A stretch of DNA of 64,000 nucleotides, from positions 160,001 to 224,000 of the forward strand of contig OY759316.1 in the NCBI GenBank assembly GCA_963662275.1, written 5' to 3'. Source of the stretch: Candidatus Cloacimonadales bacterium (GTDB lineage Bacteria; Cloacimonadota; Cloacimonadia; Cloacimonadales; DAONDQ01). The stretch's first letter is position 1; each line of letters opens with the position of its first letter. The position numbers and the translations under genes were made by a program. A model generated the notes under the pieces. That model did no database searches, was not told the DNA's origin, and saw only the letters and a list, made by a program, of their open reading frames with translations. Positions 1,964 through 32,532 of this stretch are shown here, in pieces.

Positions 1964-1974
1964 GGGAATTAACT

Positions 1975-2571: not shown

Positions 2572-4358
2572 TCATTCCCATGAAGAAATACACCTTCCTC
2601 ATCTATCATCATGATTACATCGAATTCCTGAGAAACCTACAGGAAATTGGCGTTCTGCACATCATTCGCACCATCGATAAGAACGATCCTGCCTTAAAAG
2701 AGAGCAAGGATAAGATAGATGCTTTGACGCAGATGATCAACTTCCTGAAGAAGAGAAACCAGGTTGCCCAGGATGTTCCACTTACAAGGACTCCTGATGA
2801 AATCATTACTCAACTTAACTCTCGAATCAGGAGTAAGGAAGTCCTCTCCCATCAACTTCAGACTGTTCAGAAAACAATCAGTCTCCTGGATCCCTGGGGT
2901 AATTTCTCTCGTGAACAGTTAAAAGACCTTGAATCCAAGAATATCTATATCGATTTCTTTACATGTTCCAAGAATAAGTTCCAGGAATCCTGGAAGGAAA
3001 AATACTCAATCGAGATCATTGCTTCGATTGCTCAAACCGATTATTTTGCGGTTATTCATGGTGCTGAAGATATAGTGGAAATCGATGCGGACTCAGTGAA
3101 GTTACCAGAGATAACCCTAGCAGAAGCTCGTGAATTGCTGAAGAGAATTCAATTCGACTTAGAGAAAATTGATGCTGATTTTAATGAAAGTGCTGCAAAA
3201 GAGCTTCCTCATCTCAACCAGTATCGGATAGAACTACTCAGCAAGTTTGAGTTTGAAGATGCAAGCTTGAATTCTCTCAAGGATGCTGATGATCAACTGA
3301 TAATTCTACGCGGTTGGGTTTCTAAACCCTTGGAAAAGAATCTTGTCGCTTTTCTTGAAGATAAGAGTGTCTATTATTTCGCTGAAGAACCCATGGACGG
3401 CGATAATGTACCTGTGCAGTTAAAGAACAACTGGTTTGCCAAACTGTTTGAACCAATCGGCAAACTTTATTCCCTGCCAGCTTATGGTGAATTAGACCTG
3501 ACAGCATCCTTTGCCCCATTCTTCATGCTGTTCTTTGGTTTCTGTACAGCGGATATGGGATATGGTATTGTCATTTTGGCAGCAGGAACACTTCTAAAGC
3601 TAAAAGTCAAGGATCCCAAGGTAAGACCATTACTTTCTCTCATGCAAGTGTTAGGTTTATCGACAACTGTTATGGGATTTGTGATGGGTTCTCTTCTTGC
3701 CTTCGATATGACCAAATTTAAGACAATAGGTGATTGGATTCCGATCAGGGACAAAGGGCAGATATTTAATTTTGCTCTATTACTTGGTGTGATACAGATA
3801 CTTTTTGGTGTGATCAGAAACTTCCTGAATCGAGTTAAGTACAATGGCTTTAAAGCCGGACTATCTATGATTGGAACCTTTCTCTTCATGATTGGCGTTA
3901 CGGTATTGGGTGCACCGATGTTGGGGGCAGTTCCTCCTGAAGCGTTGAAAGCAAATATGAAATATGTCATATATGCAGGCTTATTCCTGATATTCTTCTT
4001 CAATGCACCTGGGAAAAGTATCTTCGTCAACCTCGGATTGGGAATATGGGAAATGTATAATATTATCACCGGTTTCTTTGGTGACCTGTTATCCTATATC
4101 CGATTATTTGCCTTAGGTGTATCTGGCGGTATCTTGGGATTTGTCATCAATTCTATGGCTCATCAGTTTGGTGCTATTCCCATTATTGGTCCAGTTATTT
4201 TCATTGTCATGATGCTTGTTGGTCATGCTGTCAATATTGCGTTAGGTTCCTTGGGTGGATTTGTTCATCCGATGCGTCTTACGTTTGTCGAATTTTATAA
4301 GAATTCCGGATTCTCCGGTGGTGGAAAAGCATATAAACCATTCGGTAGTAAAGAATAA
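2568..4358 (+). CDS. ntpI: V-type ATP synthase subunit I
   Basis: Soluble N-half and hydrophobic C-half with DLLSYIRLFAL and VHPMRLTFVEF. Confidence 0.95.
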   Translation: MIIPMKKYTFLIYHHDYIEFLRNLQEIGVLHIIRTIDKNDPALKESKDKIDALTQMINFLKKRNQVAQDVPLTRTPDEIITQLNSRIRSKEVLSHQLQTVQKTISLLDPWGNFSREQLKDLESKNIYIDFFTCSKNKFQESWKEKYSIEIIASIAQTDYFAVIHGAEDIVEIDADSVKLPEITLAEARELLKRIQFDLEKIDADFNESAAKELPHLNQYRIELLSKFEFEDASLNSLKDADDQLIILRGWVSKPLEKNLVAFLEDKSVYYFAEEPMDGDNVPVQLKNNWFAKLFEPIGKLYSLPAYGELDLTASFAPFFMLFFGFCTADMGYGIVILAAGTLLKLKVKDPKVRPLLSLMQVLGLSTTVMGFVMGSLLAFDMTKFKTIGDWIPIRDKGQIFNFALLLGVIQILFGVIRNFLNRVKYNGFKAGLSMIGTFLFMIGVTVLGAPMLGAVPPEALKANMKYVIYAGLFLIFFFNAPGKSIFVNLGLGIWEMYNIITGFFGDLLSYIRLFALGVSGGILGFVINSMAHQFGAIPIIGPVIFIVMMLVGHAVNIALGSLGGFVHPMRLTFVEFYKNSGFSGGGKAYKPFGSKE

Positions 4359-11754: not shown

Positions 11755-12983
11755 ATGTTATGATAAAAAATATGAGTTGTAAGATTAGAAAACTTAGTGA
11801 ATTGGCAACCGTTCTAAACGGGGCAACCCCGGATACAAACACTCCTGAATATTGGAATGGCAATATATTATGGCTGACACCAAAAGACATTGGCAGGCTT
11901 AGTTCAAAGTTCATCAGCGATTCTGAACGGAAAATAACAGAACTTGGACTGCAAAGCTGTTCTTCTACAATAATTCCTGAATACTCTGTATTATTAACAA
12001 GTAGAGCACCTGTAGGGAATATAGCCGTTAATACTGTCCCTGTATGTACGAATCAAGGTTTTAAGAGTATTATCCCTAAAGAAGGTATTTATTGGGATTA
12101 TCTTTACCATTATTTATGCTTTCTTCGCCCAACATTAGATAGTCTGAGCCACGGTAATACTTTTATGGAGATTATGAAGGAAAAAGTCGATTCCTTAGAT
12201 ATCCTTATACCGGATAAATACGAAGATCAAGTAGCAATTGCCAATCAGCTTGATGACAAGCTCCAAAAAGTTGAGAAATTACATAAAGCAATATTGATGC
12301 AGGAAGAAGCTTTCCAAAATCTATACTCAGCTTATTTTAGGGATGTATGGCCTTGGAATCCTCTTGATCCTCAACCTGATGGATTAAAATGGAAAAAATC
12401 TTCATTAAAGAAATTGTGCATAGATATAAAAGGTGGCGGTACACCTGATAGGTCAAATCCAGATTACTGGAATGGAGACATTCCTTGGATTTCAAGTGCA
12501 GATATAATCAATTTATACACTGTTCAACCAAGAAGATATATCACACAGAAAGCAATAAAAGAATCTGCAACAAATATAGTTCCTAAAGGCAGTATAATCA
12601 TAGTAACCAGAGTCGGAGTGGGAAAACTATGTGTAGCTCCTTTTGATTTATGCTTCAGCCAAGATTCACATGGATTGATTCTTGATACTAATCAAATAAA
12701 TCCAAATTATCTTCTATTGTATCTTTTATCCATCATGAAATCTGTGATATTTTCATCCCAAGGATCAACCGTTAAAGGTATAACACGCGATGTGTTAGAA
12801 ACAATACCAATCATAATACCAATTGATCATATAGAACAAATCACAATTGCTGAAAAACTATATAGTATATTCGGACATCTTGACCAAATCAATCAAGATT
12901 TGGGAAAACAGAAAAATGCAATATTCTCATTAAATACGACAATACTCAATGAGACTTTCTCAAAAGTAAAGGAATCATTATGA
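11751..12983 (+). CDS. hsdS: Type I R-M specificity subunit
   Basis: Two TRDs each opening with G.TP....YWNG.I.W; IP...EQ..I coiled-coil spacers. Confidence 0.92.
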   Translation: MNVMIKNMSCKIRKLSELATVLNGATPDTNTPEYWNGNILWLTPKDIGRLSSKFISDSERKITELGLQSCSSTIIPEYSVLLTSRAPVGNIAVNTVPVCTNQGFKSIIPKEGIYWDYLYHYLCFLRPTLDSLSHGNTFMEIMKEKVDSLDILIPDKYEDQVAIANQLDDKLQKVEKLHKAILMQEEAFQNLYSAYFRDVWPWNPLDPQPDGLKWKKSSLKKLCIDIKGGGTPDRSNPDYWNGDIPWISSADIINLYTVQPRRYITQKAIKESATNIVPKGSIIIVTRVGVGKLCVAPFDLCFSQDSHGLILDTNQINPNYLLLYLLSIMKSVIFSSQGSTVKGITRDVLETIPIIIPIDHIEQITIAEKLYSIFGHLDQINQDLGKQKNAIFSLNTTILNETFSKVKESL

Positions 12984-14575
12984 ACTCAACTAAAGCTCAA
13001 AAGAATGGCAAATCTGTAAATACGCAAGCCAATATGGACAAAACGATTAAATCAATCTGCGATATATTACGCCGCGATAAAGCCAAAGGTGCCCGTCTCT
13101 ATATACCTGAATTAACCTGGATGCTTTTCCTATGTTATCTGGACATCATTGAGATAGAACAGAAACAAAGAGCGCAGGCATTGGGGAAAGACTATTCTCC
13201 GATATTGGAATCACCGTACCGCTGGCAGGATTGGGCTGCGCCATTCGACCGCAAGAAAGACCCTGATGAACTGATTAGGAACCAGGAACAGGGATGGAAA
13301 CGCTGTGAACTCAGCAACAAACGGATGGGTTCCTTCCTCAAGTTTGTGAATGAAGAGCTGTTTCCCCATTTGATGAATCTCGAAAGCAATTTCAATGTGA
13401 CACATAAGCAGCGGATCATCTCTGAAATCTTTAAGACTAAACAAAATACGATCCTCGATTCCGAAAACAACTTGCAGGACGTTTTGGATAAAGTGCATGA
13501 TCTCGCCAATTCAAAGATCGACGACACACACTTGTTTCCTATTTCACAGGCATTTGAAGGCATACTGCCCAGCCTGGGTGAAAAGAAGAATGATGGTGGA
13601 CAGTTTTTCACTCCCCGCGAAGTGATTCGTGTGATCGTGGATATCGTCAAACCAAAACTCGGTTGTACCATCTACGATCCCTGCTGTGGAACAGGCGGTT
13701 TTTTAATTGAAGCCTACAAATATCTCCTGAAACAAAATCCTTCCTCTACCCAACTCGAACAACTCAAAACAGAAGCCTTCTGGGGTAGAGAAGATGCAGG
13801 GGAAGTAATACCTATCCTGTTAGCCAATCTTCTGCTGCATGATATCGATTTGCCCCATATCTGGCATGGTAATACCCTGACCGGTAAAACAACCTATGGT
13901 GAGTTATTTGCAGGTGCTCCCAATCAGTTTGATTATATTTTAACAAATCCGCCTTTTGGCAGCAAAGAGAGCCTTTCAGCCCAGTCCAGGTTTGCCTTTA
14001 AAAGCGGAAAAGCCCAGATTCTCTTTTTACAGCATATTATCGATAGCTTGGCTGATAACGGAGTCTGCGGTATGGTAATCGATGAAGGTGTTTTATTCCA
14101 TACAAAAACCAAAGCGTACGAACAGACCAAACGCAAACTACTGAACGAATGCAATCTGTTTTGTATTATAAGCTTGCCGGGCGGTGTATTTGTTAATGCC
14201 GGTGCCGGTGTTAAAACCAATCTGTTCTTCTTCCAGAAAGGCAAACCAACCAGGAAAGTCTGGTATTATGATATGACCCTCGACGATGAATTCAAAACAC
14301 GAAAAGTCAACAAAGGCACACCTTTTCTCTCTTCCCATTTCAATGATTGCCTCAGACGCTTAGCCCTACCGGAAGATCACCAGGAACGCATCAGTGAACG
14401 AAGCTGGTTCCTGACGATAGCAGAAATTGAAGCCAGAAACTATGACCTGAAAGCTGTGAATAATAATGCTCCTGACTTCTCTGATAAACGTACATCAAAG
14501 GAATTGATTGAAGTGATTCAGAAGGCTCAGGAAGAGATAGGGGAATTGCTTGAACAACTAACAAAGGAGAAGTAA
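12980..14575 (+). CDS. hsdM: Type I R-M N6-adenine methyltransferase
   Basis: GQFFTPR, YDPCCGTGGFL, TNPPFG motifs. Confidence 0.94.
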   Translation: MNSTKAQKNGKSVNTQANMDKTIKSICDILRRDKAKGARLYIPELTWMLFLCYLDIIEIEQKQRAQALGKDYSPILESPYRWQDWAAPFDRKKDPDELIRNQEQGWKRCELSNKRMGSFLKFVNEELFPHLMNLESNFNVTHKQRIISEIFKTKQNTILDSENNLQDVLDKVHDLANSKIDDTHLFPISQAFEGILPSLGEKKNDGGQFFTPREVIRVIVDIVKPKLGCTIYDPCCGTGGFLIEAYKYLLKQNPSSTQLEQLKTEAFWGREDAGEVIPILLANLLLHDIDLPHIWHGNTLTGKTTYGELFAGAPNQFDYILTNPPFGSKESLSAQSRFAFKSGKAQILFLQHIIDSLADNGVCGMVIDEGVLFHTKTKAYEQTKRKLLNECNLFCIISLPGGVFVNAGAGVKTNLFFFQKGKPTRKVWYYDMTLDDEFKTRKVNKGTPFLSSHFNDCLRRLALPEDHQERISERSWFLTIAEIEARNYDLKAVNNNAPDFSDKRTSKELIEVIQKAQEEIGELLEQLTKEK

Positions 14576-16634: not shown

Positions 16635-17336
16635 CTATAAGAACAGATTTTTTAATAAGAGTTTATCTGCTTGCAACGTTTGAGAAAGACCAGTAAAAAC
16701 TACTTTACCAATCTTCATTACATAAGATCTATCGCTAATTTTCAACACATCTGAAACTTTCTGTTCAACAATTAAAATGCTTACCTGTTGGTTTTGATTT
16801 ATTTCGACGATTTTGTTAAATACAGTGCTAACCTTATCGGGTGCTAATCCGAGAGATGGTTCATCTAGCAATAACAGCTTTGGAAGTGTAATAAGGGCTC
16901 TAGCCAAAGCCAACATTTGTTGTTCACCTCCAGAAAGGGTACCAGCATATTGCTTTAATCGATCTTTTACTTCAGGGAACGTAATTAACACATTTTCAAT
17001 ATTTTGTTTTAATAATTTATTAGAAAGATGAATACCACCTAGTTCAAGATTTTCCATGACTTTTAAATCGTTGAATACTCGATTTCCTTGGGGAACATAT
17101 GTTATTCCCATTTTAACATTCTGAGCTGGAGACAAACCATTTATAGTCGAAGAATCGTAAATTATATCACCATTCCATATAGGAATTATTCCGCATATTG
17201 TTTTCAATACAGTTGATTTGCCAGCACCATTGGGTCCGATGAGTGCTATAATTTCGCTTTCTTTAACTTCCATTGATATATTATAAAGAACTTGTTTCAA
17301 ACCATAGCCTGTTTCGAGATTTTTGATTTCCAACAT
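16635..17336 (-). CDS. livF: ABC transporter ATP-binding protein, LivF-like
   Basis: GPNGAGKST, LSGGEQQML, LLDEPSLGLAP, VEQ. Confidence 0.9.
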   Translation of the reverse strand: MLEIKNLETGYGLKQVLYNISMEVKESEIIALIGPNGAGKSTVLKTICGIIPIWNGDIIYDSSTINGLSPAQNVKMGITYVPQGNRVFNDLKVMENLELGGIHLSNKLLKQNIENVLITFPEVKDRLKQYAGTLSGGEQQMLALARALITLPKLLLLDEPSLGLAPDKVSTVFNKIVEINQNQQVSILIVEQKVSDVLKISDRSYVMKIGKVVFTGLSQTLQADKLLLKNLFL

Positions 17337-17344
17337 TATGAACC

Positions 17345-18100
17345 TCAGTGCAGATAAGTCTCAATAACCTTTGGATCATTTCTAACGAAATCTGGTTTCC
17401 CTTCACTAACGATCGTTCCACTATCCATGAATATTACACGGTCACAAATCTTCATAACAGCATCTAAATTGTGCTCTATTAGTATCACAGTCTTGCCTAG
17501 AGAAGGTAAACTCTTTATAATTGTGAGCATGGATTCGATAGTTTCAGGAGCTATTCCAGCAACGGGTTCATCAAGCAAAAGGACTTCAGATTTTGCAGCT
17601 AGACAACAAGCGATAGTTAGTAGTTTTTGCTGTCCATAAGATAATTTTTCAGCTGGATCATTTACCTTATTCCAGATACCCATTTCTTTCAATAACACCA
17701 TTGCTTCAATTTTGTTAGCAGTTTCTTGTTTTAAACAGTATTTCCAGTTAAAGAGAGTTCTATGCAGTTTTTCCCCCGGCTGGTTCTGAAATGCTAAGAG
17801 AACGTTATCCAAAACGCTTATTTGTTTAATAAGACGAAGATTCTGGAATGTCCTACTGATTCCAAGTCTTGTAATCCGAAAAGGGACAGCATTTGTAATA
17901 TCTTTGCTTTTAAAGATCACTTTCCCGTTATCGGGTATTACGAATCCACTTATTATATTAAAGAGAGTAGTTTTTCCTGCTCCATTGGGTCCTATTATTC
18001 CTAAAATCTCTCCTTTTTGTAAAGAGCAGGAGAAACCAGAAAGGGCACAAATTCCATTGTAACTTTTGTCCAGTAGCTGAATGTCAAGGATCCCGACCAT
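17345..18100 (-). CDS. livG: ABC transporter ATP-binding protein, LivG-like
   Basis: GPNGAGKTT, RTFQN, LSYGQQK, LDEPVAG, IEH, DPKVIETYL. Confidence 0.9.
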   Translation of the reverse strand: MVGILDIQLLDKSYNGICALSGFSCSLQKGEILGIIGPNGAGKTTLFNIISGFVIPDNGKVIFKSKDITNAVPFRITRLGISRTFQNLRLIKQISVLDNVLLAFQNQPGEKLHRTLFNWKYCLKQETANKIEAMVLLKEMGIWNKVNDPAEKLSYGQQKLLTIACCLAAKSEVLLLDEPVAGIAPETIESMLTIIKSLPSLGKTVILIEHNLDAVMKICDRVIFMDSGTIVSEGKPDFVRNDPKVIETYLH

Positions 18101-18101
18101 T

Positions 18102-18983
18102 TTAGAGTTTTCCTTTCAAAAATGAATATTCGCCGATGAGACCTCTAGGTCTCCATAACATAAATGCAACAAGCAAACCCCCGTAGATAATTTGTCTAAA
18201 ATTAGCAGCTATGGAACTTGGAAGTCCAATGAAACGCAAAATCTCAGGTAGAATCACAAGAAGAACTGAACCAATAACTGGTCCCCACATGCTACCTGAG
18301 CCTCCAATTATTACAATAGAAATCATGAAGATAGATTCCATTACAGTGAAACTGGTTGGATCTATAAAACTAATGTAATAGGCAAATAAAACTCCAGCAA
18401 TTGCAGCTAAGGCAGAGCCGATTGTGAAGACTAAAATTTTATATGAAGCTACATTTTTTCCTGTTGCTTGGGATAAAACTTCATCTTCACGGATCGCTTT
18501 CAACACACGCCCAAATGGTGAAATGATAATTCGTTTAATGAACAAGAAAGTAAAAGCACCAAAAAAAGAAACAAGTAGAAGAAAGCCAAATGTCGTGGAA
18601 AACTGTATCCCGAAAATTGATGGAATTGGAATACCCGGTAAGCCAATAGGACCACCTGTAAAGGAAATCAAATTGTTTAATATATTGAAAGAAATTACCT
18701 GCAATGCGAAAGTAGCAATTACAAAATAGTCATCTTTAATTCTGAGAGTCGGAATACCAATCAATGTACTAGAAACAATGCTAGTTACAATAGCAAAACT
18801 GAGCGTTAAAATGAAAGGACTATGGAGTTTTATTGATAACAGTGCAGCGGCATAGGCACCGATACCATAAAAAGTTGCATGAGCTATAGAAAGCAAACCT
18901 GTGTAGCCCATGATTAGGTTTAGTGATATTGTAAGAATAGAATAAATACCAATTAAAATAAAGATATGTATCAAATACTCCAT
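18102..18983 (-). CDS. livM: ABC transporter permease, LivM-like (start reassigned to MEYLIH)
   Basis: GYTGLLSIAHATFYGIGAY, SPFGRVLKAIREDE, RPRGLIG; ATG 10 nt after the livH stop, with a G-rich RBS. Confidence 0.88.
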   Translation of the reverse strand: MEYLIHIFILIGIYSILTISLNLIMGYTGLLSIAHATFYGIGAYAAALLSIKLHSPFILTLSFAIVTSIVSSTLIGIPTLRIKDDYFVIATFALQVISFNILNNLISFTGGPIGLPGIPIPSIFGIQFSTTFGFLLLVSFFGAFTFLFIKRIIISPFGRVLKAIREDEVLSQATGKNVASYKILVFTIGSALAAIAGVLFAYYISFIDPTSFTVMESIFMISIVIIGGSGSMWGPVIGSVLLVILPEILRFIGLPSSIAANFRQIIYGGLLVAFMLWRPRGLIGEYSFLKGKL

Positions 18984-18993
18984 TCTATATCCC

Positions 18994-19875
18994 CTACACC
19001 TCGGTTTTGAGAAATTGTTTTCGAAAAATACCTTTTGGACGTATAGCAAGAAAACTTAACAGCAAAATAAAAGCAGTTACTTCCCCCCACTGTGCTCCGA
19101 ATTGCCAACCAGCTATCTGCTGTAGAGTTGCTAAAATGAATGAGATTAAAGCAATTGAACAAGTTTTCCCATTTCCATTTATCACAACAACAACGATACC
19201 TAGCAATAGCATAGGTAGACCCATCGTCGGTGTCATTCCAACATCGTAAGCTTGAAGAATTCCAGTTGTACTCGCAATAAAAGAACCTAAGCAGAAGCAA
19301 ATTCCAGTAACTTTGTCTATTTCAATCCCACTTATCTTTGCTAACTCTTGATTGTTAGTTATTGCCCGCATAATTAAGCCAATTTTGGTTTTATCGATAA
19401 ATAAAGTCTTTGAAAGTAGAATGATTATCGCAAAACCGATTAGAATCAATTGGATGGGTGTAATCAAAGCTCCAAATAAATTGAGCGCTGGGGTAATTGA
19501 AGCGTTGCTAATTATTTTTGTATCGTCCCCGAATAGCAAAGATATCACATTCTGAATAACTGTATAGAGACCAAGGGAAGAAAGTAAAAGGACTAAAGAG
19601 GACGCATCTCGATGTCTCATTGGCCGATATACTGCCCAATCTAATAACCAACCTAATCCTGTTCCTGCTATTAACGCAAGAGGAAAAGCAGCATAGATTG
19701 AGAGGTGAATGACCTGAGAAAAAGCAAAAAAACTGTAGGCTCCAAATGTGATGATTACAGCATGAGTAAAATGAAAGAATCTAACTGCTGAGAATATTAT
19801 AGAGAAACTGCTACTTATAAGAAAGATTATGGAAGCAGAAATTAGAATATTTACAATGAATTGTTCCAATACCAA
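18994..19875 (-). CDS. livH: ABC transporter permease, LivH-like
   Basis: Multi-TM; TKIGLIMRA..N.ELA..SGI, RPKGIF. Confidence 0.85.
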   Translation of the reverse strand: MVLEQFIVNILISASIIFLISSSFSIIFSAVRFFHFTHAVIITFGAYSFFAFSQVIHLSIYAAFPLALIAGTGLGWLLDWAVYRPMRHRDASSLVLLLSSLGLYTVIQNVISLLFGDDTKIISNASITPALNLFGALITPIQLILIGFAIIILLSKTLFIDKTKIGLIMRAITNNQELAKISGIEIDKVTGICFCLGSFIASTTGILQAYDVGMTPTMGLPMLLLGIVVVVINGNGKTCSIALISFILATLQQIAGWQFGAQWGEVTAFILLLSFLAIRPKGIFRKQFLKTEV

Positions 19876-21444: not shown

Positions 21445-22608
21445 TCACTCTATTGCATCAAATAAAAGTTGACTATCTGAATCCTTAGTAATTGTCACTC
21501 CACAAAATTCTATTGGTTTAGAATCAGATTGATTTTCAATTCTCTCCAAAAGGCTGGCAAGTTCCTCAGCAGACATGGTTTTGGTCTTCATGAAGCAATT
21601 ATCGAACAGTTTCAAGTATTTATGTTCTGGTTCGAGAATCAGAGTACATAATTTTTCTTCTCCATTAACTCTTACATCTGTAGAAGCTTCTGTGGGATCA
21701 TTCCATTTAATAACCGCTTTCTGGTCAAACATCTGATAATCAACGTTAGCTAAGCCACAAGAACAATATGCTTTGCACAGTGTTTTTTCATATGCAAATC
21801 TAGTAGATATACTATAATCACTCATTTTCATCGAAAACCTTAGAAAACATTTTAACGCCTGACGGTTATTAATACTGAAAAAATCGTTAAGTTTATTTTC
21901 TGCTATTATCACGAAACGCTTTTTCACTTCTGTAACATTAGCACTTAAAAATGCCTTGGCGTGAGGTGGAAAATCGTTAAAATCAAGTTGATCAGTAAGT
22001 GCACGTTTACGTTTTTCCGGAGATTCTTCAAATACATTCTCAAACCACTCTTTCGGAGTATATGGGCATGTCATATATATGGACTTATGTGTGAATGGTA
22101 ACAACTCATTAATTATCTCTGAATACTCTGTAGCACTGGTTACTATTTGAATTTTTGTGGGAGATAGAAAATCTTTGCTTAATTTATGCGAAATAAATAA
22201 AGGAACAATCCACTTAGTTTTTGTCGGGATATTTTCTGATAAACGAAGGAGACTCTCAAAATTACCTTCATCTGTATGGAATGCTACGTATGGAGATAGA
22301 CGATCAAGAGAGTTCATAATATGTGAAAAATATTTCTCTTTAAACTGTATGTCTATATCATTAATTAATTCCTTTGTTTGTTTTCTATCAATTATTCTTA
22401 TTAATCCTAGAATATTATCTGAAATAAGTGCACAGAGACTTATGATGATAAAGTTCCAAGTTCCTATTCCTAAGCATTTAGGAACTGTCTGATGAGCAAT
22501 AATAAGTCCAATGATTATTCCAACACCATATTTAGATATCCGATATAGAGTATTCCAAGTGTGAGTACTAGATTGGTTGTTTTTCTGTTTTCGCTTTTTA
22601 TTACTCAT
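21445..22608 (-). CDS. Hypothetical protein with two N-terminal TM segments and a soluble domain
   Basis: 387-aa ORF starting 1 nt after the rSAM stop with a GGAGG RBS; hydrophobic stretches at about aa 27-70. Confidence 0.75.
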   Translation of the reverse strand: MSNKKRKQKNNQSSTHTWNTLYRISKYGVGIIIGLIIAHQTVPKCLGIGTWNFIIISLCALISDNILGLIRIIDRKQTKELINDIDIQFKEKYFSHIMNSLDRLSPYVAFHTDEGNFESLLRLSENIPTKTKWIVPLFISHKLSKDFLSPTKIQIVTSATEYSEIINELLPFTHKSIYMTCPYTPKEWFENVFEESPEKRKRALTDQLDFNDFPPHAKAFLSANVTEVKKRFVIIAENKLNDFFSINNRQALKCFLRFSMKMSDYSISTRFAYEKTLCKAYCSCGLANVDYQMFDQKAVIKWNDPTEASTDVRVNGEEKLCTLILEPEHKYLKLFDNCFMKTKTMSAEELASLLERIENQSDSKPIEFCGVTITKDSDSQLLFDAIE

Positions 22609-22609
22609 A

Positions 22610-23752
22610 TCACCTCCATTCTTCTATATATTGAGTAACATCAAAATCACTCAGATCAACAAAGATGCATGATGTCTTTTGTCCATTTATGAATCTTTTA
22701 TGCATTGGTCCTCCATCGCAGTATGCCCATTCTGAACACTGAACACAATCACCTGTTTTTCGCCAAGATGCATCTCGGAAAATCTGATACCGGTTTTCCC
22801 AAACTTCATGAATATTGTCTGTGCGAAGATCTCCCTGTATAAAATCTCTTGATATGTTACTACATGATGCAAGTTTACCATCGAATAGAATGCCCAGGTT
22901 ATTCAATCCTGCAATACAGTGAAAAATAAAAGGTCGCACACGTCCTTCAAGTTCTGTACCAAGCCATCCACCACATCCAAGTTCTACCATTGTTGAAGAT
23001 GGATTCGAATAAGTTGAACAAGAATTATCATATTCCTTCTTAAGAAAATCAATCACTCTCAGTAATTGGTTTGGTTTAAGGAGGTGATCAGAATTCTCTT
23101 GCACACGTCCCATAAGATCAATAAACATTACACGAAAAACTCGAGGTTTTATCTCATCCTTGACAAATTTAAAAAACGATTCAAGTTCATTGATATTGCC
23201 TGAATGAGCAACGAACGAAACAGTTACAACATAGCCCGCTGCGACTGTAAGTTGTGCAGCATTAACTGCTTTTACCCATGTCCCTGGTATTCCCCTGAGG
23301 GTGTCATGAGATGATTCGAATCCATCAATACTGATGCCTAATCCAGTAACTCCGAGGTTTTTTAATTCTTTGAGGATAAATGGGTTTTCCGAAATAAAAA
23401 CTCCATTCGTCTGGATATCTATATTTCTATAATAAGGCCAGCGATTGATAGTTTGCAGGATTGTAAGTAGGTCGTTTCGAACAAAAGGCTCTCCGCCAGT
23501 GATATTTATATGCCGAAAATGGTTCATATCGAAATCTTGTGCGATTTCGTTAAAAGCTTCAATAATTTCATATTTCGTTAGTTCAGAAGCAATATCAACT
23601 TCTTCAGAAGGAGAACCACAATGCGAGCACATAAGGTTGCATCTTCGAGTAGCTTCCCAACTAATGATTTGGAGAGGATGCTCCTTCTTAAGGGTTTCTA
23701 TTCGAGATTTCCAATTTTCAAAGAGTGGTTTTAAAACCTCATAATCTGTCAT
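22610..23752 (-). CDS. Radical SAM/SPASM peptide maturase, TIGR04133/splicease-like
   Basis: HPL....WE.T.RCNL.C.HCGS; ITGGEP; QTNG; SPASM cysteines FHCIAG, ASCSNI, CVQCSEWAYCDGG, TSC. Confidence 0.85.
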   Translation of the reverse strand: MTDYEVLKPLFENWKSRIETLKKEHPLQIISWEATRRCNLMCSHCGSPSEEVDIASELTKYEIIEAFNEIAQDFDMNHFRHINITGGEPFVRNDLLTILQTINRWPYYRNIDIQTNGVFISENPFILKELKNLGVTGLGISIDGFESSHDTLRGIPGTWVKAVNAAQLTVAAGYVVTVSFVAHSGNINELESFFKFVKDEIKPRVFRVMFIDLMGRVQENSDHLLKPNQLLRVIDFLKKEYDNSCSTYSNPSSTMVELGCGGWLGTELEGRVRPFIFHCIAGLNNLGILFDGKLASCSNISRDFIQGDLRTDNIHEVWENRYQIFRDASWRKTGDCVQCSEWAYCDGGPMHKRFINGQKTSCIFVDLSDFDVTQYIEEWR

Positions 23753-23928
23753 TATGCAAAAACTTGATCGAAATAATCGTTATTCTCATCATCAGGATGG
23801 CTTCCATACATGTTGTTGACGTATTCTACTGGATTCGACCACTTGAGCATTCTTCTTTTAAATTCGAGTACAGAATCTTTATTTTTTACGGCGGGTGCAT
23901 TGTTGTCCATCTGTGTAGTGTTTGACAT
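23752..23928 (-). CDS. Putative RiPP precursor, 58 aa: MSNTTQMDNNAPAVKNKDSVLEFKRRMLKWSNPVEYVNNMYGSHPDDENNDYFDQVFA (not in ORF track)
   Basis: GGAG RBS at 23940-23937; fills the livK-rSAM gap; stop overlaps the rSAM start (TAATG). Confidence 0.78.
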   Translation of the reverse strand: MSNTTQMDNNAPAVKNKDSVLEFKRRMLKWSNPVEYVNNMYGSHPDDENNDYFDQVFA

Positions 23929-23940
23929 AAGATAATCTCC

Positions 23941-25062
23941 TTATTTTAAGTTAACAGGTTGACCATTAATAATAGTCTTTTTTGCAAATGATTCTGAAAA
24001 AAGATCTCCGTTTGGACGAAAAGCGATTTCGCCAGAAACGCCCTGAAAAGTAACTCCTAAAAGTGCAGAGCGAATCTTTTCAGTGTTGATTGAATTTGCA
24101 GTTTTCACAGCTTTGAAAATCGCCATAGAGGCATCGTAAGCATAGGCTCCAAGTACATCTGGTTCTTCACCATATTTGGTTTTGTATTTCTTAGCGAATT
24201 CGATGAAGCTTGCAGTTTTACTATCAGATGGCGCAGTATAAAAAACACCTTCCGCAGCTTTTCCAGCTATTGTGATAAACTCGGGGGAACCCCAGTTATC
24301 ACCCCCGAAAAGGGGTAAGTTAAGTCCAAGTTCTTTCATCTGTCTAACAAAGACTCCTCCTTCTTTAGGATAAGTTGGAGAGACAATGGCATCGATGTTT
24401 TTCATTCTTTTAAGTTTAGTTATAATTGTACGAAAATCTGTTGAATTTTCTTCCACTCCTTCAGCATGTACTACCTGACCTCCTAATGCTTCAAACTTGC
24501 TTTGAAATCCTTCAGAAAGTGGTTTACCCCAAGCGTTATTTGAAAATACAATCGCAACTCTCTTTTTCCCAATTCCGTATACCCATTTTGAGAGTACTTC
24601 AGCTTGTTGATCATCAGCGGGACAAGTTCGGAAGAAATACTCCCCACCTTGAGTAGATAACTCAGTAGATGATGCTATTGGAGAAATTAATATAACCTTG
24701 AATCTGCTTGCTAAAGGTGCTATAGCTAGACATACGCCACTACCTGCAGAGCCAAATACAACCGGAATTTTATCAATAGAAGCAAATTTTGTCATAATAC
24801 TGACAGCTTCTTTCTTATCATTACGGTCATCCTGAAAATCAACAACAACCTGTTTCCCAAGAAGACCTCCTTTTGCATTCTGGTCTTCCACAGCCATTTC
24901 AATTCCTCGTTTTGCTTTTTGACCATATGATGCTACTTCGCCAGTTAAAGGGAAGGTTGCACCGAAAGTGATCGTGTTTGTTGTTTTATGCCAGGGATGA
25001 AAAATAATTAGTCCAGCAACAATGACTAGCACTAAAATGATAGGCCAAATTGAATTTCTCAT
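23941..25062 (-). CDS. livK: ABC transporter substrate-binding protein, LivJ/LivK-like
   Basis: N-terminal anchor; FPLTGEVASYG...IEMAVE..NAKGGLLGK; YFFRT.P.D; DFRTII; AYAYDA. Confidence 0.88.
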   Translation of the reverse strand: MRNSIWPIILVLVIVAGLIIFHPWHKTTNTITFGATFPLTGEVASYGQKAKRGIEMAVEDQNAKGGLLGKQVVVDFQDDRNDKKEAVSIMTKFASIDKIPVVFGSAGSGVCLAIAPLASRFKVILISPIASSTELSTQGGEYFFRTCPADDQQAEVLSKWVYGIGKKRVAIVFSNNAWGKPLSEGFQSKFEALGGQVVHAEGVEENSTDFRTIITKLKRMKNIDAIVSPTYPKEGGVFVRQMKELGLNLPLFGGDNWGSPEFITIAGKAAEGVFYTAPSDSKTASFIEFAKKYKTKYGEEPDVLGAYAYDASMAIFKAVKTANSINTEKIRSALLGVTFQGVSGEIAFRPNGDLFSESFAKKTIINGQPVNLK

Positions 25063-25239: not shown

Positions 25240-27137
25240 CTGGAGGTGTCCCGTAACTAGCATTAATCTATTTGCTTATTTTGTAAAATATATGATTGTT
25301 TTTAGATGTACACTAAATTACTCAATAGTTTCCGAAAAGCGATGCAAAGACAAGGAAAATGGAGTAATATTTACCTAATTCATGTTTGAATTCTGGTAGG
25401 AAGAGTCTTCATTAGGCTTTTCCTTCAGTATTTTGTAAGTGTAGAAACATTTTCCCTATATTATGTCCTAAAAAGAGGAGGTATAACTGTTCCTTGCATT
25501 TTCTCAATGAACGGACAGTAAATCTCTCAAACTTCCTGTTCCACTTCATGAAAGCAAATACAGCCTCCGGTTCGATGCCTCTTTGCTTTCTCAGCTTGTC
25601 GCCTTTTTCAGAAAGCAGATTATTGACGGTCTGACGTTTTAGGGGAGCTATATGAGGATCGTAGGTCAGCAATTTATGAGTTTTATCCTTGTAGGGAATA
25701 CACTTTTTATTGTGAGGACATTCTATGCAGTCATTACATATATAGGTTTTCACGATTCGTTTCGGACCGTTCTTCTCTGTCTCTTCTTCCTTGATTTTGA
25801 CCAGTCTCCGATTAAATTGACAGCCCCACTCATCATGCTCCTCATCATAGCTAAAGCCTGTCAGAAGAGAGTCCCGATAATCTCTCTTATAATCCTGGGT
25901 CTTGAGATAGCTTGTTATCTCTTTTTCAGCAGCATAATTCAAATTCAGCGCAGTGCCATAGGCAGCATCTCCAACAACGTCGGTAGGATATTGTCCCAAT
26001 TCATCATGCATTTGCTCCATGAGATTGGGAAATTCAACGGTTTCTTTAGGGATATTGAATAAGTGAATGCCTGTGACAAATTGCTCTGAAGTTCCGATAC
26101 TGGCAACATAACCCGGTGCCAGCTGTCCATTTTTCAATCGCATAAATGTGGCATCATTATCAGTCTTGGATGTGCTGCTGCGTCCTTCTCCAATTATCTC
26201 AAGCTGTTGCTCATATTTCTCCAGCTTAGTTATATCATTGCTCTTTGATTTGGAGATTTCGCGCAAAAGAGATTTGATTTTCTTGATAGCCCGAGTATCT
26301 GACGGATGATTTTTCTGTAGTCGGGACATTGCTTCTTTCAGCTTGTTTTCTGCTGAGACCAGTCTATCTCTGATCTGTTCAGATGCGACTGTAGCAGTTT
26401 TCTCTGATTCAACCGCATGCAATTGCTCACCAAGCTCAAGAAGATCAGCGGTTCCATATTGCTGTTGCTCTTCCTGATTATATTCCTCGATCTTTTTAAA
26501 CAATCCCTCAACTCGTGTCTTGACCAGTTCCTGATAACGAAGCGCATTGCTTTTCCAGATGTAGGAATTCTTGCCGGCATTTGCGTGAATCGTCGTCCCG
26601 TCAACAAAACAGGTGTCGAGATCAAGATATCCTAATGATGATGCTTTCAGTACTACCTGATAAAATACATCAATAAGAATATCAGAACACTTAGTCCAGG
26701 CAAAGGTGTTGATCGTTCTGAAATCAGGTTCCTGTTCTCCTGCCAGCCAGATAAAATTGATGTTCTCCCGAACAGCCTTAGCTATCTTCCGACAGGTATA
26801 AATACCATTGATATAGGCGTATACAATGATCTTCAACATCATCTTGGGATGATAAGCAGGTGTACCTTCATCAGAGTATCTTGAGTATAGCTCAGTTAAG
26901 TCCAGTTGCTCAATGATATCGTTAACATAACGAACCATATGTTTGGGGGGTATTTTTTCGCTTATATTAAGCCCGAAAAGAGTACCCTGATCCGGGTTGT
27001 GTTCTCTGAAATTCATAGTGTCTCTCTATACTTAGTTTTTAAAGGCAATAATACACCATAGAACAATATGTCAAGATATATAACTAATTATTTAATAGTT
27101 GCTATTTTTCTATCATTTAGTTTCGGGACATCTCCAG
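25240..27137 (-). mobile_element. IS1182-family insertion sequence
   Basis: Terminal IRs ctggaggtgtcccgtaacta / tagtttcgggacatctccag (18/20 match) enclosing the transposase; exact ends uncertain by a few nt. Confidence 0.85.
25412..27016 (-). CDS. IS1182-family transposase
   Basis: G.PAYHPKMMLK, PDFRTI, VDGTTIHANA, SKTD.DATFMR, GDAAY, R..EPE.VF..K. Confidence 0.93.
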   Translation of the reverse strand: MNFREHNPDQGTLFGLNISEKIPPKHMVRYVNDIIEQLDLTELYSRYSDEGTPAYHPKMMLKIIVYAYINGIYTCRKIAKAVRENINFIWLAGEQEPDFRTINTFAWTKCSDILIDVFYQVVLKASSLGYLDLDTCFVDGTTIHANAGKNSYIWKSNALRYQELVKTRVEGLFKKIEEYNQEEQQQYGTADLLELGEQLHAVESEKTATVASEQIRDRLVSAENKLKEAMSRLQKNHPSDTRAIKKIKSLLREISKSKSNDITKLEKYEQQLEIIGEGRSSTSKTDNDATFMRLKNGQLAPGYVASIGTSEQFVTGIHLFNIPKETVEFPNLMEQMHDELGQYPTDVVGDAAYGTALNLNYAAEKEITSYLKTQDYKRDYRDSLLTGFSYDEEHDEWGCQFNRRLVKIKEEETEKNGPKRIVKTYICNDCIECPHNKKCIPYKDKTHKLLTYDPHIAPLKRQTVNNLLSEKGDKLRKQRGIEPEAVFAFMKWNRKFERFTVRSLRKCKEQLYLLFLGHNIGKMFLHLQNTEGKA

Positions 27138-28348: not shown

Positions 28349-29626
28349 ATGATTACCACATCAAAATCTAACCCAAAGAGGTTTTTTGTCAACTCAGAAA
28401 TGATGCTTGTTGGCATTGATATCAGCAAGCACAAACACAGTGTGTATTTTTGTGATTTTACAGGTGAACGGAAGCGTAAGCCATTTTTTATTACAAACAA
28501 TCATGATGGTTTTCAGTATCTGCTAAAAGAAGCAGAACAGCAAAAGCGTTTGTGGAATCTGAACGAGATTGTATTTGGAATGGAACCAACAGGTTCATAT
28601 GTAAAGCCACTCCAGTACTTCTTGGAAGAACGCTGCTATCAAATCCAAAGCATCAACCCATTACACACTAAAAGATGGAAGGATATTGAAGATAATCATC
28701 CATCCAAGAATGATTTGAAAGACAGTATTATCATTACCTCTCTGTTAAGAATGGGCAAGAGCATCCATCATCGGAGACCTGAAGGTGTTTTCGCGGAGTT
28801 GAACAACTATGCAGCTTATTATCACCAGTTAATCACAGATATTCGCAGGCAGAGGAACTATCTGGAAGCCTCTTATGCCTGTTACTTTCCTGAATTGAGT
28901 AACTTTTTCAAATTTAACAGTACGGGAGTAATGTATATCATGGAGTGTTTTCCTCTTCCTCAGGATATCGTAAATGCAGGATATGAGAATTTTCTGAAGA
29001 TTATGAAAACAAAAAGCAAAGGGTGCATAGCTACAGAGAAGCTTCACAGTTTATATCAGGTATCTCTAACAAGTATTGGCATGAGTCAGGGAGCGGATAG
29101 TGCGAGAGTGGTCATAAATGCGATCTATGAGGATATCAGCTATAAACAATACCATCTCAAACAAATCAAAACAGCAATCATGACATGTGTAGATAAAATC
29201 AGTTATGGATCGTTATTGGTGACAATACCTGGTTTGAGTAAAGTATCAGTGGGGTTAATTCTGGCGGAGACTGGAGATATCAATCAATATGGTCGATATC
29301 AGGATTTAGTCAAACTTGCCGGATTGAGTTTAAAACACAATCAATCAGGAGAATACCATGGGCAATATCATATCTCTAAGGTAGGAAGAGTAAGGTTGCG
29401 AAGGATCTTGTATATGCTTACTCTGGAAATGATTATAAACAATCAATTAATCAATCAGATATATAATTATCAAGTAAAAAAGCGAGGTAATAACAAGGTC
29501 AAAACTATCGTTTCTTTGAGCAGTAAATTACTGGGAATCATGTACTCAATGGTTAAATATGAAAGGTCGTTTGATCCTGAACAGCGAAAGCTATATGCAG
29601 GTTATTTAACTGAAAATAATCAGTGA
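28349..29626 (+). CDS. IS110-family transposase/recombinase
   Basis: RuvC-like GIDISK, GMEPTG, KND.KD; C-terminal TIPG...ILAETGD...F/Y..AGL....QSG...ISK.G..LR. Confidence 0.93.
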   Translation: MITTSKSNPKRFFVNSEMMLVGIDISKHKHSVYFCDFTGERKRKPFFITNNHDGFQYLLKEAEQQKRLWNLNEIVFGMEPTGSYVKPLQYFLEERCYQIQSINPLHTKRWKDIEDNHPSKNDLKDSIIITSLLRMGKSIHHRRPEGVFAELNNYAAYYHQLITDIRRQRNYLEASYACYFPELSNFFKFNSTGVMYIMECFPLPQDIVNAGYENFLKIMKTKSKGCIATEKLHSLYQVSLTSIGMSQGADSARVVINAIYEDISYKQYHLKQIKTAIMTCVDKISYGSLLVTIPGLSKVSVGLILAETGDINQYGRYQDLVKLAGLSLKHNQSGEYHGQYHISKVGRVRLRRILYMLTLEMIINNQLINQIYNYQVKKRGNNKVKTIVSLSSKLLGIMYSMVKYERSFDPEQRKLYAGYLTENNQ

Positions 29627-30345: not shown

Positions 30346-32532
30346 ATGAAGTACTTTCTATTTTTAATTGTTCTACTTATTGCCTCAGTTTCAAGTGTGT
30401 TTGCAGAAGAATGGATTAACTATGGTAATCAAAATTTGATACTTTGCTCTTCACAGGAAGGTGACAATTTATGGGTAGGGGCTTGGGGAGGTCTGGTAAA
30501 GCTCAATATCGTAACCGGACAGAAAATCTATTACAATACAACAAACTCGGGACTTGTCGATAACAATGTACAATGCATTTTGATAGATAGCCAGGGGAAC
30601 AAATGGCTTGGTACAGATCGTGGACTTTGCCGTTTTGATGGAACGAACTGGATAACATGGAATGAAGATAATTCTGAAATACCGAATAATTATATTACAG
30701 GTATTGCAACTGATGCATATGCTAATATATGGATAACAACAGAGGGGGGATTGGGCAGGCTGAATAATGGTACTTGGACGAATTGGAATGAAACGAATTC
30801 TGCTCTGCCTACAAATCATCTATCGTGTATTGCCATTGACAATAGTGGTACAAAATGGATTGGATCAAGTGAAGGTGTTATTACTTTTTCAGGAAATACC
30901 TGGAACCAGCTTACGATGGATGATCATGTATCAGCAATTTCAATTGATAACCAGGGGAATAAGTGGTTTGGTTTCGGTAACTCCGGTCTTGGAAAACTCA
31001 GCGGTACGACGTGGACTTATTATAATCCTTCAAATTCTGATATTCCGGACGTCACTATAGAATGTATGGCAACAGATGCAGCAGGAAATGTATGGTTATG
31101 TACCGAAGAAGGTGAAGCAACTATTCGTGGAGGGTTAACAAAATTTGACGGAACGAATTGGACGACTTGGAACACGGCAAATTCAAATATTCCTTTTGAT
31201 ATAATCACATCAATTACAATCATGAATGGAACAGGTGTATGGACAGGAATGTTGTTTAGCGGGATGGTCAGATTTGACGGAACTAACTGGGTCTCATATT
31301 CGTTATCCAATGCAGGCTATTTCTTTCCAGCCGTTAATTGTATCGAAATTGACAGTTCACATAGAAAATGGATCGGAACGGAAGGAGGTTTATCTTTATT
31401 TGCTGGTAACAATTGGAGTTCATGGAGTCCTTTTAATACTCAAGAACAAGTTTTGAATGATGTAGCTCATATAGCAGCAGATAATGATAATGTTGTGTGG
31501 GTGGATTGTGATAACGGTGAAACAAGGGATATCTATAGCTATAATGGGTCAGTATGGACACTGCACCAACCTTCAGAATATGGATTGCAAGTAATAGATA
31601 TTAGTTGTATTAAAACCGATAACCAGAATAATAAGTGGATAGGAACAGGTCAGAGTTTAGTGAAGTTTAATGGGACAAATCATATCATCTATAATTCAAC
31701 AAATTCCCCGATCACCAGCCAGATCAATGATATTATAAGAGATCTGTACGGTAACTTCTGGGTCGCAACTGCAGAAAATGGACTACTTCAATTTAACGGA
31801 ACTGCCTGGACTGCCTTGAACACTTCAAATTCAAATATTCCATCCAACAGAATTAAACGGATAGCAATCGATAATGCTGGTAATAAATGGTTAGCTACTG
31901 CCAGTGGTCTATGCCGTTATGACGATTTAACCTGCACTATCTGGAACACGCAAAACTCTGGCATCCCCACGAATGATGTCTCGTCAGTTGTAACCGGTCA
32001 GAACAATCAAATTTGGTTAACAACAAATCATGTTGATCAATGGGGTGAACCTTCAGATGGAGTTTTATCACGCTTTGATGGCAGCACTTGGACATCCTGG
32101 ACATCACTTAATTCACGGTTACCCAATGGAGCTATCAATGATTTGAAAATCGATAGCTTTGGTAACAAATGGATTGCATCTTATGAAGGTGGTCTCATTG
32201 AGTTCAATGAAAACGTGATCGTTGCTGTTGATGATGAGACATTACCGAGCATAAGCCAGCAAATAGAAACATCAATATATCCTAATCCCTTCAATCCCTC
32301 TACTACGATCAAATTTAATGTCCCTAGTGAAGGAATTGTAAAGCTCAGTATCTTCAATATCAGAGGACAACTTGTGAAAACACTGGCAAATGAGAGAATG
32401 AGTGTTGGGGATCATCAAATCAACTGGAACGGTATGGATAAAAACGATAACCAACAGGCATCAGGAGTTTATTTCCTGCAAGTCCAAGCGAATGGATTAA
32501 AGTCCGTAAAAAAAATGCTGATGCTAAAATAG
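30346..32532 (+). CDS. Secreted beta-propeller (Reg_prop-like repeats) protein with YPNPFNP/FlgD-Ig C-terminal domain
   Basis: Signal peptide; repeated I.ID..GNKW.GT..GL..FDGT.W..N..NS.IP.N; YPNPFNP...WNG.D...SGVYF. Confidence 0.85.
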   Translation: MKYFLFLIVLLIASVSSVFAEEWINYGNQNLILCSSQEGDNLWVGAWGGLVKLNIVTGQKIYYNTTNSGLVDNNVQCILIDSQGNKWLGTDRGLCRFDGTNWITWNEDNSEIPNNYITGIATDAYANIWITTEGGLGRLNNGTWTNWNETNSALPTNHLSCIAIDNSGTKWIGSSEGVITFSGNTWNQLTMDDHVSAISIDNQGNKWFGFGNSGLGKLSGTTWTYYNPSNSDIPDVTIECMATDAAGNVWLCTEEGEATIRGGLTKFDGTNWTTWNTANSNIPFDIITSITIMNGTGVWTGMLFSGMVRFDGTNWVSYSLSNAGYFFPAVNCIEIDSSHRKWIGTEGGLSLFAGNNWSSWSPFNTQEQVLNDVAHIAADNDNVVWVDCDNGETRDIYSYNGSVWTLHQPSEYGLQVIDISCIKTDNQNNKWIGTGQSLVKFNGTNHIIYNSTNSPITSQINDIIRDLYGNFWVATAENGLLQFNGTAWTALNTSNSNIPSNRIKRIAIDNAGNKWLATASGLCRYDDLTCTIWNTQNSGIPTNDVSSVVTGQNNQIWLTTNHVDQWGEPSDGVLSRFDGSTWTSWTSLNSRLPNGAINDLKIDSFGNKWIASYEGGLIEFNENVIVAVDDETLPSISQQIETSIYPNPFNPSTTIKFNVPSEGIVKLSIFNIRGQLVKTLANERMSVGDHQINWNGMDKNDNQQASGVYFLQVQANGLKSVKKMLMLK

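Follow-up and report, generated by a model that had tools for sequence, protein, structure and literature searches.

A 64,000-nucleotide stretch of contig OY759316.1 from a Candidatus Cloacimonadales bacterium (the window) encodes, on its minus strand, a 58-residue peptide whose stop codon overlaps the start codon of a radical S-adenosylmethionine (SAM) enzyme with a SPASM domain, and the pair lies within an operon for an ATP-binding cassette (ABC) importer of the leucine/isoleucine/valine (Liv) type. The peptide gene is genuine, its protein sequence is under purifying selection, and its pairing with the enzyme recurs in many phyla. We propose, at what we judge to be about even odds, that the peptide is the substrate of the coupled enzyme and is attacked at Tyr41 of an M40-Y41-G42 motif, most likely by excision of a tyramine equivalent, with a product that remains in the cell.

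The peptide gene and its conservation

The list of open reading frames (ORFs) gives exactly the residues quoted in an earlier sequence-only reading of this DNA, including M40-Y41-G42. The GGAG ribosome-binding site which that reading assigned to the peptide can be read 8 nt before the ATG, where it directly abuts the stop codon (TAA) of the binding-protein gene upstream. The claimed overlap with the enzyme start is likewise present, as TAATG at 23750-23754, in which the peptide TAA and the enzyme ATG share one base. The description of the N-terminal half as leader-like, on the other hand, is not supported for its first 20 residues: the N-terminus is polar, but these residues are not conserved, and conservation begins only at F23, with the stretch F23-K-R-R-M-L-K-W30 that precedes the core (residues 32-45). 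From there the constraint covers the whole C-terminal 36 residues, F23 to F57, including a tail that reads Y52-F-D-Q-V-F57 in the window.

Nine metagenome protein homologues were found besides the window's own (E 1e-8 to 3e-15), and species-representative genomes gave 15 peptide loci, assigned by their record titles to Zixibacteria, Planctomycetota, Acidobacteriota, Armatimonadota, a deltaproteobacterium, Bacteroidetes, Woesearchaeota and Pacearchaeota. Pattern matches in metagenomes were confirmed in 97 of 108 cases, and the best 80 were kept as loci. When 1.84 billion representative sequences were searched with a profile, only 57 clusters came up at E ≤ 1e-3 (51 at E ≤ 1e-10), nearly all of 42-95 residues; the peptide family is compact, without distant kin. 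A Pfam and NCBIfam scan of the peptide gave no match.

Among 94 loci, 73 distinct 39-nt core DNA sequences were found; the loci are partly non-independent, as L015 and L052 come from the same contig, L058-L062 agree in peptide length and flanking-gene identities, and L073 and L074 have identical table rows. The core P-V-E-x-V-N-N-M-Y-G-x-H-P is kept across the 73 DNA versions, with P33, V34, E35, V37, N38, Y41, H44 and P45 unchanged, while every synonymous codon is used. Since all synonymous codons occur and the amino acids are invariant, selection acts on the protein.

The expectation that a conserved Y-G peptide would accompany the enzyme in syntenic loci was borne out: Y41 is invariant throughout, and 81 of 89 loci with enough downstream sequence have the enzyme at most 45 nt from the peptide stop. 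Of these, 78 belong to a set of 86 that extend 300 nt or more beyond the peptide, and three had been missed by the regular expression. At 22 loci the peptide stop and enzyme start codons overlap.

Relatives of the radical SAM enzyme

The enzyme matches the Pfam families Radical_SAM (1e-16) and SPASM (1.3e-6), and CxxxCxxC together with seven more cysteines is invariant or near-invariant among 48 homologues. A sequence search against solved structures returned only the generic matches MoaA, PqqE, SkfB and Tes. For the phylogeny, IQ-TREE was run under LG+C20 on 37 rows and 403 columns, leaving out MoaA (branch length 4.6), L122 (truncated), redundant loci and a Clostridium perfringens plasmid enzyme whose gene annotation is split in two. 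The window family (11 rows) is supported at 100/99; support is 99/99 when the enzyme of locus L113 is added and 94/98 when the true TIGR04133 members are added. A superclade of 28 rows (84/94) further takes in TIGR04133-like enzymes, PlpX-type enzymes, the GDL-motif maturases, an Agathobacter enzyme and two further lineages. MftC, PqqE, a Rhizobium and a Brevibacillus radical SAM enzyme, AcgM and four SPASM paralogues from relatives lie outside.

When plasmids were searched with the enzyme by tblastn, TIGR04133 members came first (1e-36 to 5e-45), followed by the Aureibacter, GDL, nif11-class and Agathobacter enzymes (2e-23 to 8e-19), all ahead of MftC (9e-16), a ranking that agrees with the tree. 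By these comparisons the enzyme is placed in the TIGR04133 lineage and is related to the PlpX family without belonging to it. The link of this lineage to the PlpX-type and GDL-motif maturases appears to have moderate support.

x-Tyr-Gly/Ala in the partners of related enzymes

The small proteins encoded beside related enzymes carry a motif like that of the window peptide. In the sister locus L113, from the same phylum, a 48-residue ORF before the enzyme contains ...R-M-M-L...D-P-L-E-G-I-Y-S-I-Y-G-D-I-A; the pattern R-M-M-L...D-P-L-E is common to this peptide and that of the window. TIGR04133-like enzymes adjoin small membrane proteins or lipoproteins with VVYGPP, VDYGPP, ISYGPQ or MDYGPP, and in an archaeal metagenome-assembled genome (MAG) labelled Woesearchaeota (G044) the partner has IYAPP. 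True TIGR04133 members adjoin TIGR04134 lipoproteins, and in eight of nine such proteins above the model's cut-off x-Y-G/A-x-P stands right after the lipobox cysteine (LYGTP, MYGTP, KYGVP, LYGVP, MYACP); a Treponema partner of TIGR04134 type has CYGMP. These TIGR04133/TIGR04134 loci (L121, L123, L137-L149, L162) come from Bacteroidota genomes and a Treponema plasmid, and several paralogous TIGR04134 lipoproteins occur per genome, distant from the single TIGR04133 enzyme. The site is of the type seen in spliceotide precursors, and the pair may serve protein splicing of lipoproteins before export.

The motif extends to more distant members of the superclade. On a Nostoc plasmid, the precursor beside a 'nif11-class peptide radical SAM maturase 3' is a Nif11 peptide ending ...ALYGLPPELF. 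GDL-motif maturases, 47-48% identical to the Nostoc enzyme, are each preceded by three DUF1843 peptides that start ...LYG, ...PYG, ...LYA or ...MYA, and are followed by a class I methyltransferase on an Aureibacter plasmid (L164) and by the binding protein and potA ATPase of an ABC importer on an Azospirillum plasmid (L163), the latter being a second, independent pairing of a Y-G peptide and its enzyme with an importer. An Agathobacter enzyme 32.5% identical to that of Nostoc (L171) has an unannotated upstream ORF ending ...VMYGTGVRM. L113 and L171 both have an unannotated small ORF with I/M-Y-G before the enzyme and a major facilitator superfamily (MFS) transporter after it.

As a background, ORFs of at least 150 residues (translation table 11) in the loci collected contain Y[GA] at 0.0045 and Y[GA]xP at 0.00027 per residue, so that proteins 48-176 residues long would contain Y[GA]xP by chance in 1.3-4.7% of cases. 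No obvious Y-G partner was seen in the superclade lineages L124/L125 and L134. Given its recurrence in the partners of related lineages, the motif is a property of the enzyme clade, not a coincidence of the window peptide.

The candidate site, the predicted complex and the proposed reaction

Y41 is invariant in all peptide sequences examined, and in 33 divergent representatives it shares this status, besides the initiating Met, only with N38, G42 and H44. As x-Tyr-Gly/Ala is common to partners across the related enzyme group, Tyr41-Gly42 is the best candidate for the modification site, one with good comparative support. Four relatives (P0133, P0146, P0161 and P0170) contain two tandem units of the form helix-N-P-V-E-x-V-N-N-x-Y-G-x-H-P, an arrangement typical of repeated cores. 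Elsewhere in the core, position 40 is M, L or I, position 43 is C, S, T or A, and position 36 is Y, F, L, I, G or V. Two other kinds of modification were considered and ruled out. Formylglycine or a thioether at position 43, where C or S recalls the substrates of anaerobic sulfatase maturases, is contradicted by the occurrence of Ala and Thr; a three-residue cyclophane at W30-x-N32 or Y36-V-N38 is contradicted by Ser at position 30 and by L, I, G, V or P at position 36.

A complex of peptide and enzyme was predicted from an alignment of each, with SAM and three 4Fe-4S clusters. It scored 0.94, the best of three controls reaching 0.01; in the calibration, 116 of 157 solved complexes and 2 of 215 mismatched pairs scored as high, although the custom alignments and added ligands make this job unlike the calibration set. 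At least 63% of contacts are common to the runs, with a predicted local distance difference test score (pLDDT) of 66 or more for the partner. In the model, helix 23-29 packs on enzyme residues 3-21 and 269-276, with the lowest-error contacts to 7-18 and 269-276; residues 31-44 contact the barrel strand ends (78-83, 110-114, 136-139, 175-177 and 204-205); and the tail 53-58 contacts residues 245-249. From this model we infer that the core 31-44 enters the enzyme barrel.

The binding, site, chemistry and cellular role that we infer may be put together as follows. Helix 22-30 would dock on the N-terminal helix and SPASM region of the enzyme, so that the core N32-P45 could thread into the barrel, where the 5'-deoxyadenosyl radical would attack Tyr41 of M-Y-G. 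A tyramine equivalent (C8H9NO) would leave, and a bond between the Met40 carbonyl and what had been the Tyr carbonyl would turn Met40 into an alpha-keto-beta-amino (ketoamide) residue. A methyl group would then probably be added by a B12-binding radical SAM enzyme or a class I methyltransferase in some two thirds of the cassettes. The modified small protein would stay in the cell and, in bacteria, work with the Liv-type amino-acid importer. Among possible reactions tyramine excision at Tyr41 is, by analogy, the leading candidate, because it is the sole chemistry characterised for x-Tyr-Gly in this enzyme superclade.

Alternatives to tyramine excision

Several observations weigh against this proposal and are gathered here. 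The first concern the enzyme. Its best NCBIfam model, TIGR04133, matches over the full length with 229.1 bits, below the cut-off of 425, while true members score 516-592. The sequence-only reading had drawn on the PlpX-type spliceases, but the enzyme is no member of that family: TIGR04103, the PlpX family model, ranks only fourth, with 96.7 bits against a cut-off of 725, and the enzyme falls in the TIGR04133 lineage instead. The superclade that joins the two has support of only 84/94, with seven outgroup lineages among 37 rows, and in a quick tree with MoaA that protein attaches at the base of the window enzyme family, a placement we read as a long-branch effect.

The failure at the PlpX cut-off is consistent with a different chemistry on the same substrate, such as a C-C or ether cross-link of Tyr41 (for example to His44), beta-hydroxylation or dehydrogenation, yielding a rigidified small protein. 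We regard this as possible but doubtful. The models of the cross-linkers PqqE (72.5 bits against a cut-off of 381) and MftC (84.3 against 265) match the enzyme at similar hidden Markov model (HMM) scores, WgkB, likewise a cross-linker, is also among the NCBIfam matches, and TIGR03913 (89 against 592) lies below its cut-off as well. In the peptide family Tyr41 is no more invariant than His44, Pro45 and Asn38; together with the conserved tail residues Y52-F53 this exceeds the need of a splice tag and allows a cross-link or a structural role. Position 42, moreover, is Gly in 70 of the 73 distinct cores, Ala in two and Ser in one (Ala at loci L072, L077 and L078; Ser at L020). The earlier assignment of M40-Y41-G42 as the site thus keeps its footing in the invariance of Y41 and in the x-Y-G shared by related partners, and loses some of it at Gly42, which is replaced in four loci. 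What argues against the other chemistries is that across the partners of related enzymes only x-Y-G/A, often followed by P, is common, whereas His and Asn are not, and that positions 43 and 36 vary.

A second group of observations concerns peptides that lack the enzyme. It is not adjacent downstream in 8 of 89 loci, one of which (L101) has it immediately upstream. In L025/L092 a solo peptide lies among translation and RNA-polymerase genes, and in L087 in an unrelated neighbourhood; in L015/L052 the peptide precedes binding proteins and LivHMGF without the enzyme. In L022 and L027 it forms the C-terminal 40 residues of a 250-residue His_Phos_1 protein, followed by one to four paralogues with a C-terminal phosphoenolpyruvate (PEP)-utiliser mobile domain and, in L027, then by the phosphate acetyltransferase Pta. 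The reverse order, with the peptide before a His_Phos-like domain, occurs in one metagenome protein (P0175). Five archaeal genomes have the peptide in such settings, two of them in fused form. No orthologue of the enzyme was found with one enzyme query in four of four such genomes searched (best match 31% identity), which are MAGs of 0.6-1.6 Mb of unestablished completeness. Given these solo and fused peptides, the module may have a role without modification.

Taken further, the peptide might not mainly be a substrate, but a small functional module that merely travels with the enzyme, for example one that regulates the importer, serves it as an accessory subunit or partners a histidine-phosphatase-type enzyme. 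The solo and fused cases, with fusions in both orders, fit this idea, as do the conservation of the full length F23-F57 and the fact that the peptide directly follows the binding-protein gene in 59 of the 77 loci for which upstream sequence is available. We nevertheless think it quite unlikely, as the enzyme is adjacent in 81 of 89 loci, often with an overlapping stop codon, the archaeal pair occurs without transporter genes, the core runs into the active-site barrel in the predicted complex, and some relatives have tandem duplicated cores.

A third point is that the conserved cassette genes include neither a protease nor an exporter, and that the only transporter in the cassette is an importer of the Leu/Ile/Val type, which depends on a binding protein. 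It is on these two grounds that we expect the product to be intracellular. The same lack of an exporter, the extreme conservation of the core across bacteria and archaea, and the further tailoring genes (B12-binding radical SAM enzyme, methyltransferase, PLD-fold protein) would also suit a sacrificial precursor of a diffusible cofactor made from Tyr41 and its neighbours, as PqqA is for pyrroloquinoline quinone (PQQ) and MftA for mycofactocin. This we hold to be very unlikely: the cassette has no conserved peptidase or oxidase, the universal genes are the peptide and the enzyme only, and PqqE and MftC, whose models score far below their cut-offs, lie outside the superclade.

Returning to tyramine excision, one may speculate about the use of its product. 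The modified peptide could be an intracellular electrophilic (alpha-ketoamide) cofactor or regulator that acts on or senses imported amino acids, forming with the importer a mobile module, an importer with its own carbonyl peptide, that many bacterial phyla and DPANN archaea share, with an unmodified or differently used form tied to histidine-phosphatase/PEP-utiliser phosphotransfer proteins in some archaea; that all of this applies seems unlikely.

Comparison with known systems

In PMC11414181, PMC10533398 and PMC11626197, spliceases are described as SPASM radical SAM enzymes that excise C8H9NO at XYG, with MYG and LYG as proven natural sites and natural splice tags that read ...RPLYGLPI. PMC11414181 also describes binary systems without a Y protein and, for type II, binding of the enzyme by a helix of the leader. 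A survey from 2022 (Scott et al., Chem 8:2659) is cited in PMC10533398 for 939 predicted splicease systems, and YG-rich neighbours of such enzymes are credited to it in 189 genera. Our literature search found no paper on TIGR04133, nor on a splicease together with a lipoprotein. The titles and abstract openings of the splicease matches listed name no Liv-importer or archaeal system; Scott et al. (2022) may list the family or TIGR04133.

The window pair resembles the spliceotides PlpA, PcpA and RhaA with their PlpX-type enzymes (TIGR04103, IPR026482) in that a SPASM radical SAM enzyme comes right after a short precursor with hydrophobic-Tyr-Gly. A leader helix that binds the enzyme (type II, PMC11414181) has a predicted counterpart in the window model, and the enzymes probably share one superclade, with moderate support (84/94). 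The window differs in an enzyme outside TIGR04103, a peptide near-invariant over 36 residues and without a Nif11 or NHLP leader, and no Y protein, no small Y-like ORF being conserved after the enzyme. Its placement in a Liv-type importer operon, its occurrence in DPANN archaea and the lack of a protease or exporter also set it apart, and its chemistry is proposed by analogy.

TIGR04133/TIGR04134 of Bacteroides, Parabacteroides and Treponema is the nearest curated enzyme family and the sister in the tree (94/98), its TIGR04134 partner carries x-Y-G/A-x-P after the lipobox, and one variant of this, MYACP, resembles a MYACHP variant of the window family. The window motif Y-G-x-H-P (M-Y-G-S/C-H-P) has one residue more before Pro, however, and the enzyme lies below the family cut-off. 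The window peptide is a soluble, acidic protein of 58 residues without signal peptide, lipobox or TIGR04134 match, and the genomic contexts differ. The GDL-motif peptides (DUF1843) with TIGR03913 are likewise cytoplasmic-looking peptides of about 60 residues with x-Y-G/A, and their loci run parallel to the window with an adjoining methyltransferase (Aureibacter) or importer binding protein and ATPase (Azospirillum). In contrast to the window, they have x-Y-G/A at the peptide N-terminus, three paralogous peptides per enzyme and an importer of the Pot and not the Liv type. By analogy, the Azospirillum pairing hints that the link to an importer is no accident.

PqqA/PqqE and MftA/MftC also consist of a short, highly conserved peptide beside a SPASM radical SAM enzyme, with a reactive Tyr and an intracellular product. 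Unlike the window, they have a PqqD or MftB chaperone and peptidase or oxidase genes (no PqqD-like gene was found among the scanned cassette genes), and their enzymes, whose models give the window enzyme scores below cut-off, lie outside the superclade. From a classical secreted RiPP (a peptide made on the ribosome and modified after translation) the window differs by having no leader protease or exporter among the conserved cassette genes. What is unusual here is the importer-embedded, cross-domain distribution.

If the enzyme does splice Tyr41, tyramine excision would reach a new, TIGR04133-like enzyme lineage and the archaea. It would act on a near-invariant intracellular small protein instead of a variable secreted peptide and have an amino-acid ABC importer as its constant partner, and the long-unexplained TIGR04133/TIGR04134 pair of Bacteroides and Treponema would gain a testable function. 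The small pair (58 and 380 residues), with docking predicted at high confidence, would be a convenient system and possibly a compact splice tag.

The importer cassette and its surroundings

The operon runs on the minus strand in the order LivK-like protein, peptide, SPASM radical SAM enzyme, 387-residue protein, B12-binding radical SAM enzyme, LivH, LivM, LivG and LivF (Table 1). In other phyla tblastn found the same gene order, with binding proteins 50-76% and SPASM enzymes 57-74% identical. In bacteria the pair has the LivK-like binding protein on one side and LivHMGF on the other, whereas in DPANN archaea it lies beside a tandem Lrp-type regulator, without transporter genes. The upstream neighbour, among 77 loci with more than 700 nt of sequence, is the binding protein in 59, a divergent tandem Lrp/AsnC regulator in 12 (archaeal), a fused histidine phosphatase in two and a radical SAM enzyme in one, with no query gene in three. 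The 39 enzyme-bearing loci with at least 5 kb downstream have the B12-binding enzyme in 20 cases, only a class I methyltransferase in six and neither in 13, and Liv permease or ATPase genes in 29. By these counts of flanking genes the peptide and the SPASM enzyme are the universal core, and the B12-binding enzyme, present in about half of the cassettes, is an accessory gene. One small DPANN genome (G848) has two diverged peptide-enzyme pairs (L152, L159).

Table 1. Features of the window and of selected related loci
Feature	Position	Strand	Basis or remark
LivK/LivJ-like substrate-binding protein of ABC importer	23941..25062	(-)	Peripla_BP_6 2.4e-58; nearest structures Leu/Ile/Val-binding proteins
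GGAG ribosome-binding site	23937..23940	(-)	plus-strand CTCC; 8 nt 5' of peptide ATG
58-residue precursor-like peptide gene	23752..23928	(-)	ORF list, homologues, alignments, codon analysis
Peptide segments: 1-21 variable; 22-30 basic helix; 32-45 core N-P-V-E-Y-V-N-N-M-Y-G-S-H-P; 52-57 tail Y-F-x-x-V-F		(-)	alignments
Recognition helix E22-W30 (F-K-R-R-M-L-K-W), predicted	23839..23865	(-)	conserved R26, M27, L28; modelled contacts with enzyme
Conserved core N32-P45	23794..23835	(-)	alignments; tandem copies in some relatives
M40-Y41-G42 codons, proposed modification site	23803..23811	(-)	window sequence
Radical SAM/SPASM enzyme, 380 residues, CxxxCxxC at C38/C42/C45	22610..23752	(-)	Pfam, NCBIfam, tree
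387-residue protein, N-terminal hydrophobic helices, PLD/Nuc-like fold at 151-350 (model)	21445..22608	(-)	
B12-binding radical SAM enzyme, 490 residues	19879..21351	(-)	Pfam B12-binding and Radical_SAM
LivH	18994-19875	(-)	ORF and tblastn synteny
LivM	18102-19049	(-)	ORF and tblastn synteny
LivG	17345-18100	(-)	ORF and tblastn synteny
LivF	16635-17336	(-)	ORF and tblastn synteny
L113 peptide; radical SAM enzyme; MFS transporter	354-500; 618-1736; 1826-2986		
L171 ORF with M-Y-G; radical SAM enzyme; MFS transporter	1210-1416; 1498-2652; 2670-3929		
His_Phos_1-peptide fusions	L022:7377-8129; L027:4244-4996		

The best NCBIfam match of the B12-binding enzyme is HpnJ, with 105 against 578. The 387-residue protein had no Pfam or NCBIfam match and only unnamed clusters in the ESM Atlas. 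Its family has nine members, with a conserved His and without the lysine of the HKD motif, and its model (pLDDT 65) aligns with the nuclease-fold structure 6ehi (NucT) at Z 9.8 and a root-mean-square deviation of 3.0 over 134 residues. In other cassettes a family of about 600 residues takes its place; kinship of the two families was considered and set aside, as hhalign gave a probability of only 31%.

Of 232 genomes from the window's phylum, only the window's own yielded the peptide, and no orthologue of the SPASM enzyme was found in 40 relatives (best match 25% identity). A type I restriction-modification system and two transposases border the cassette. From these three observations the cassette looks horizontally acquired. 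The importer operon with its peptide is spread patchily over bacteria and small archaea. The restriction-modification genes (HsdR, HsdS, HsdM) occupy 9391-14575 (+) on one side, and on the other side a DDE and an IS110-family transposase occupy 25412-27016 (-) and 28349-29626 (+). The cassette has a G+C content of 0.34-0.36, against 0.38-0.42 for its flanks. Farther along, at 30346-32532 (+), the window encodes a secreted protein of 728 residues that appears to consist of repeated beta-propeller-like units, with a C-terminal tail resembling a type IX secretion sorting domain, both as read from the sequence only.

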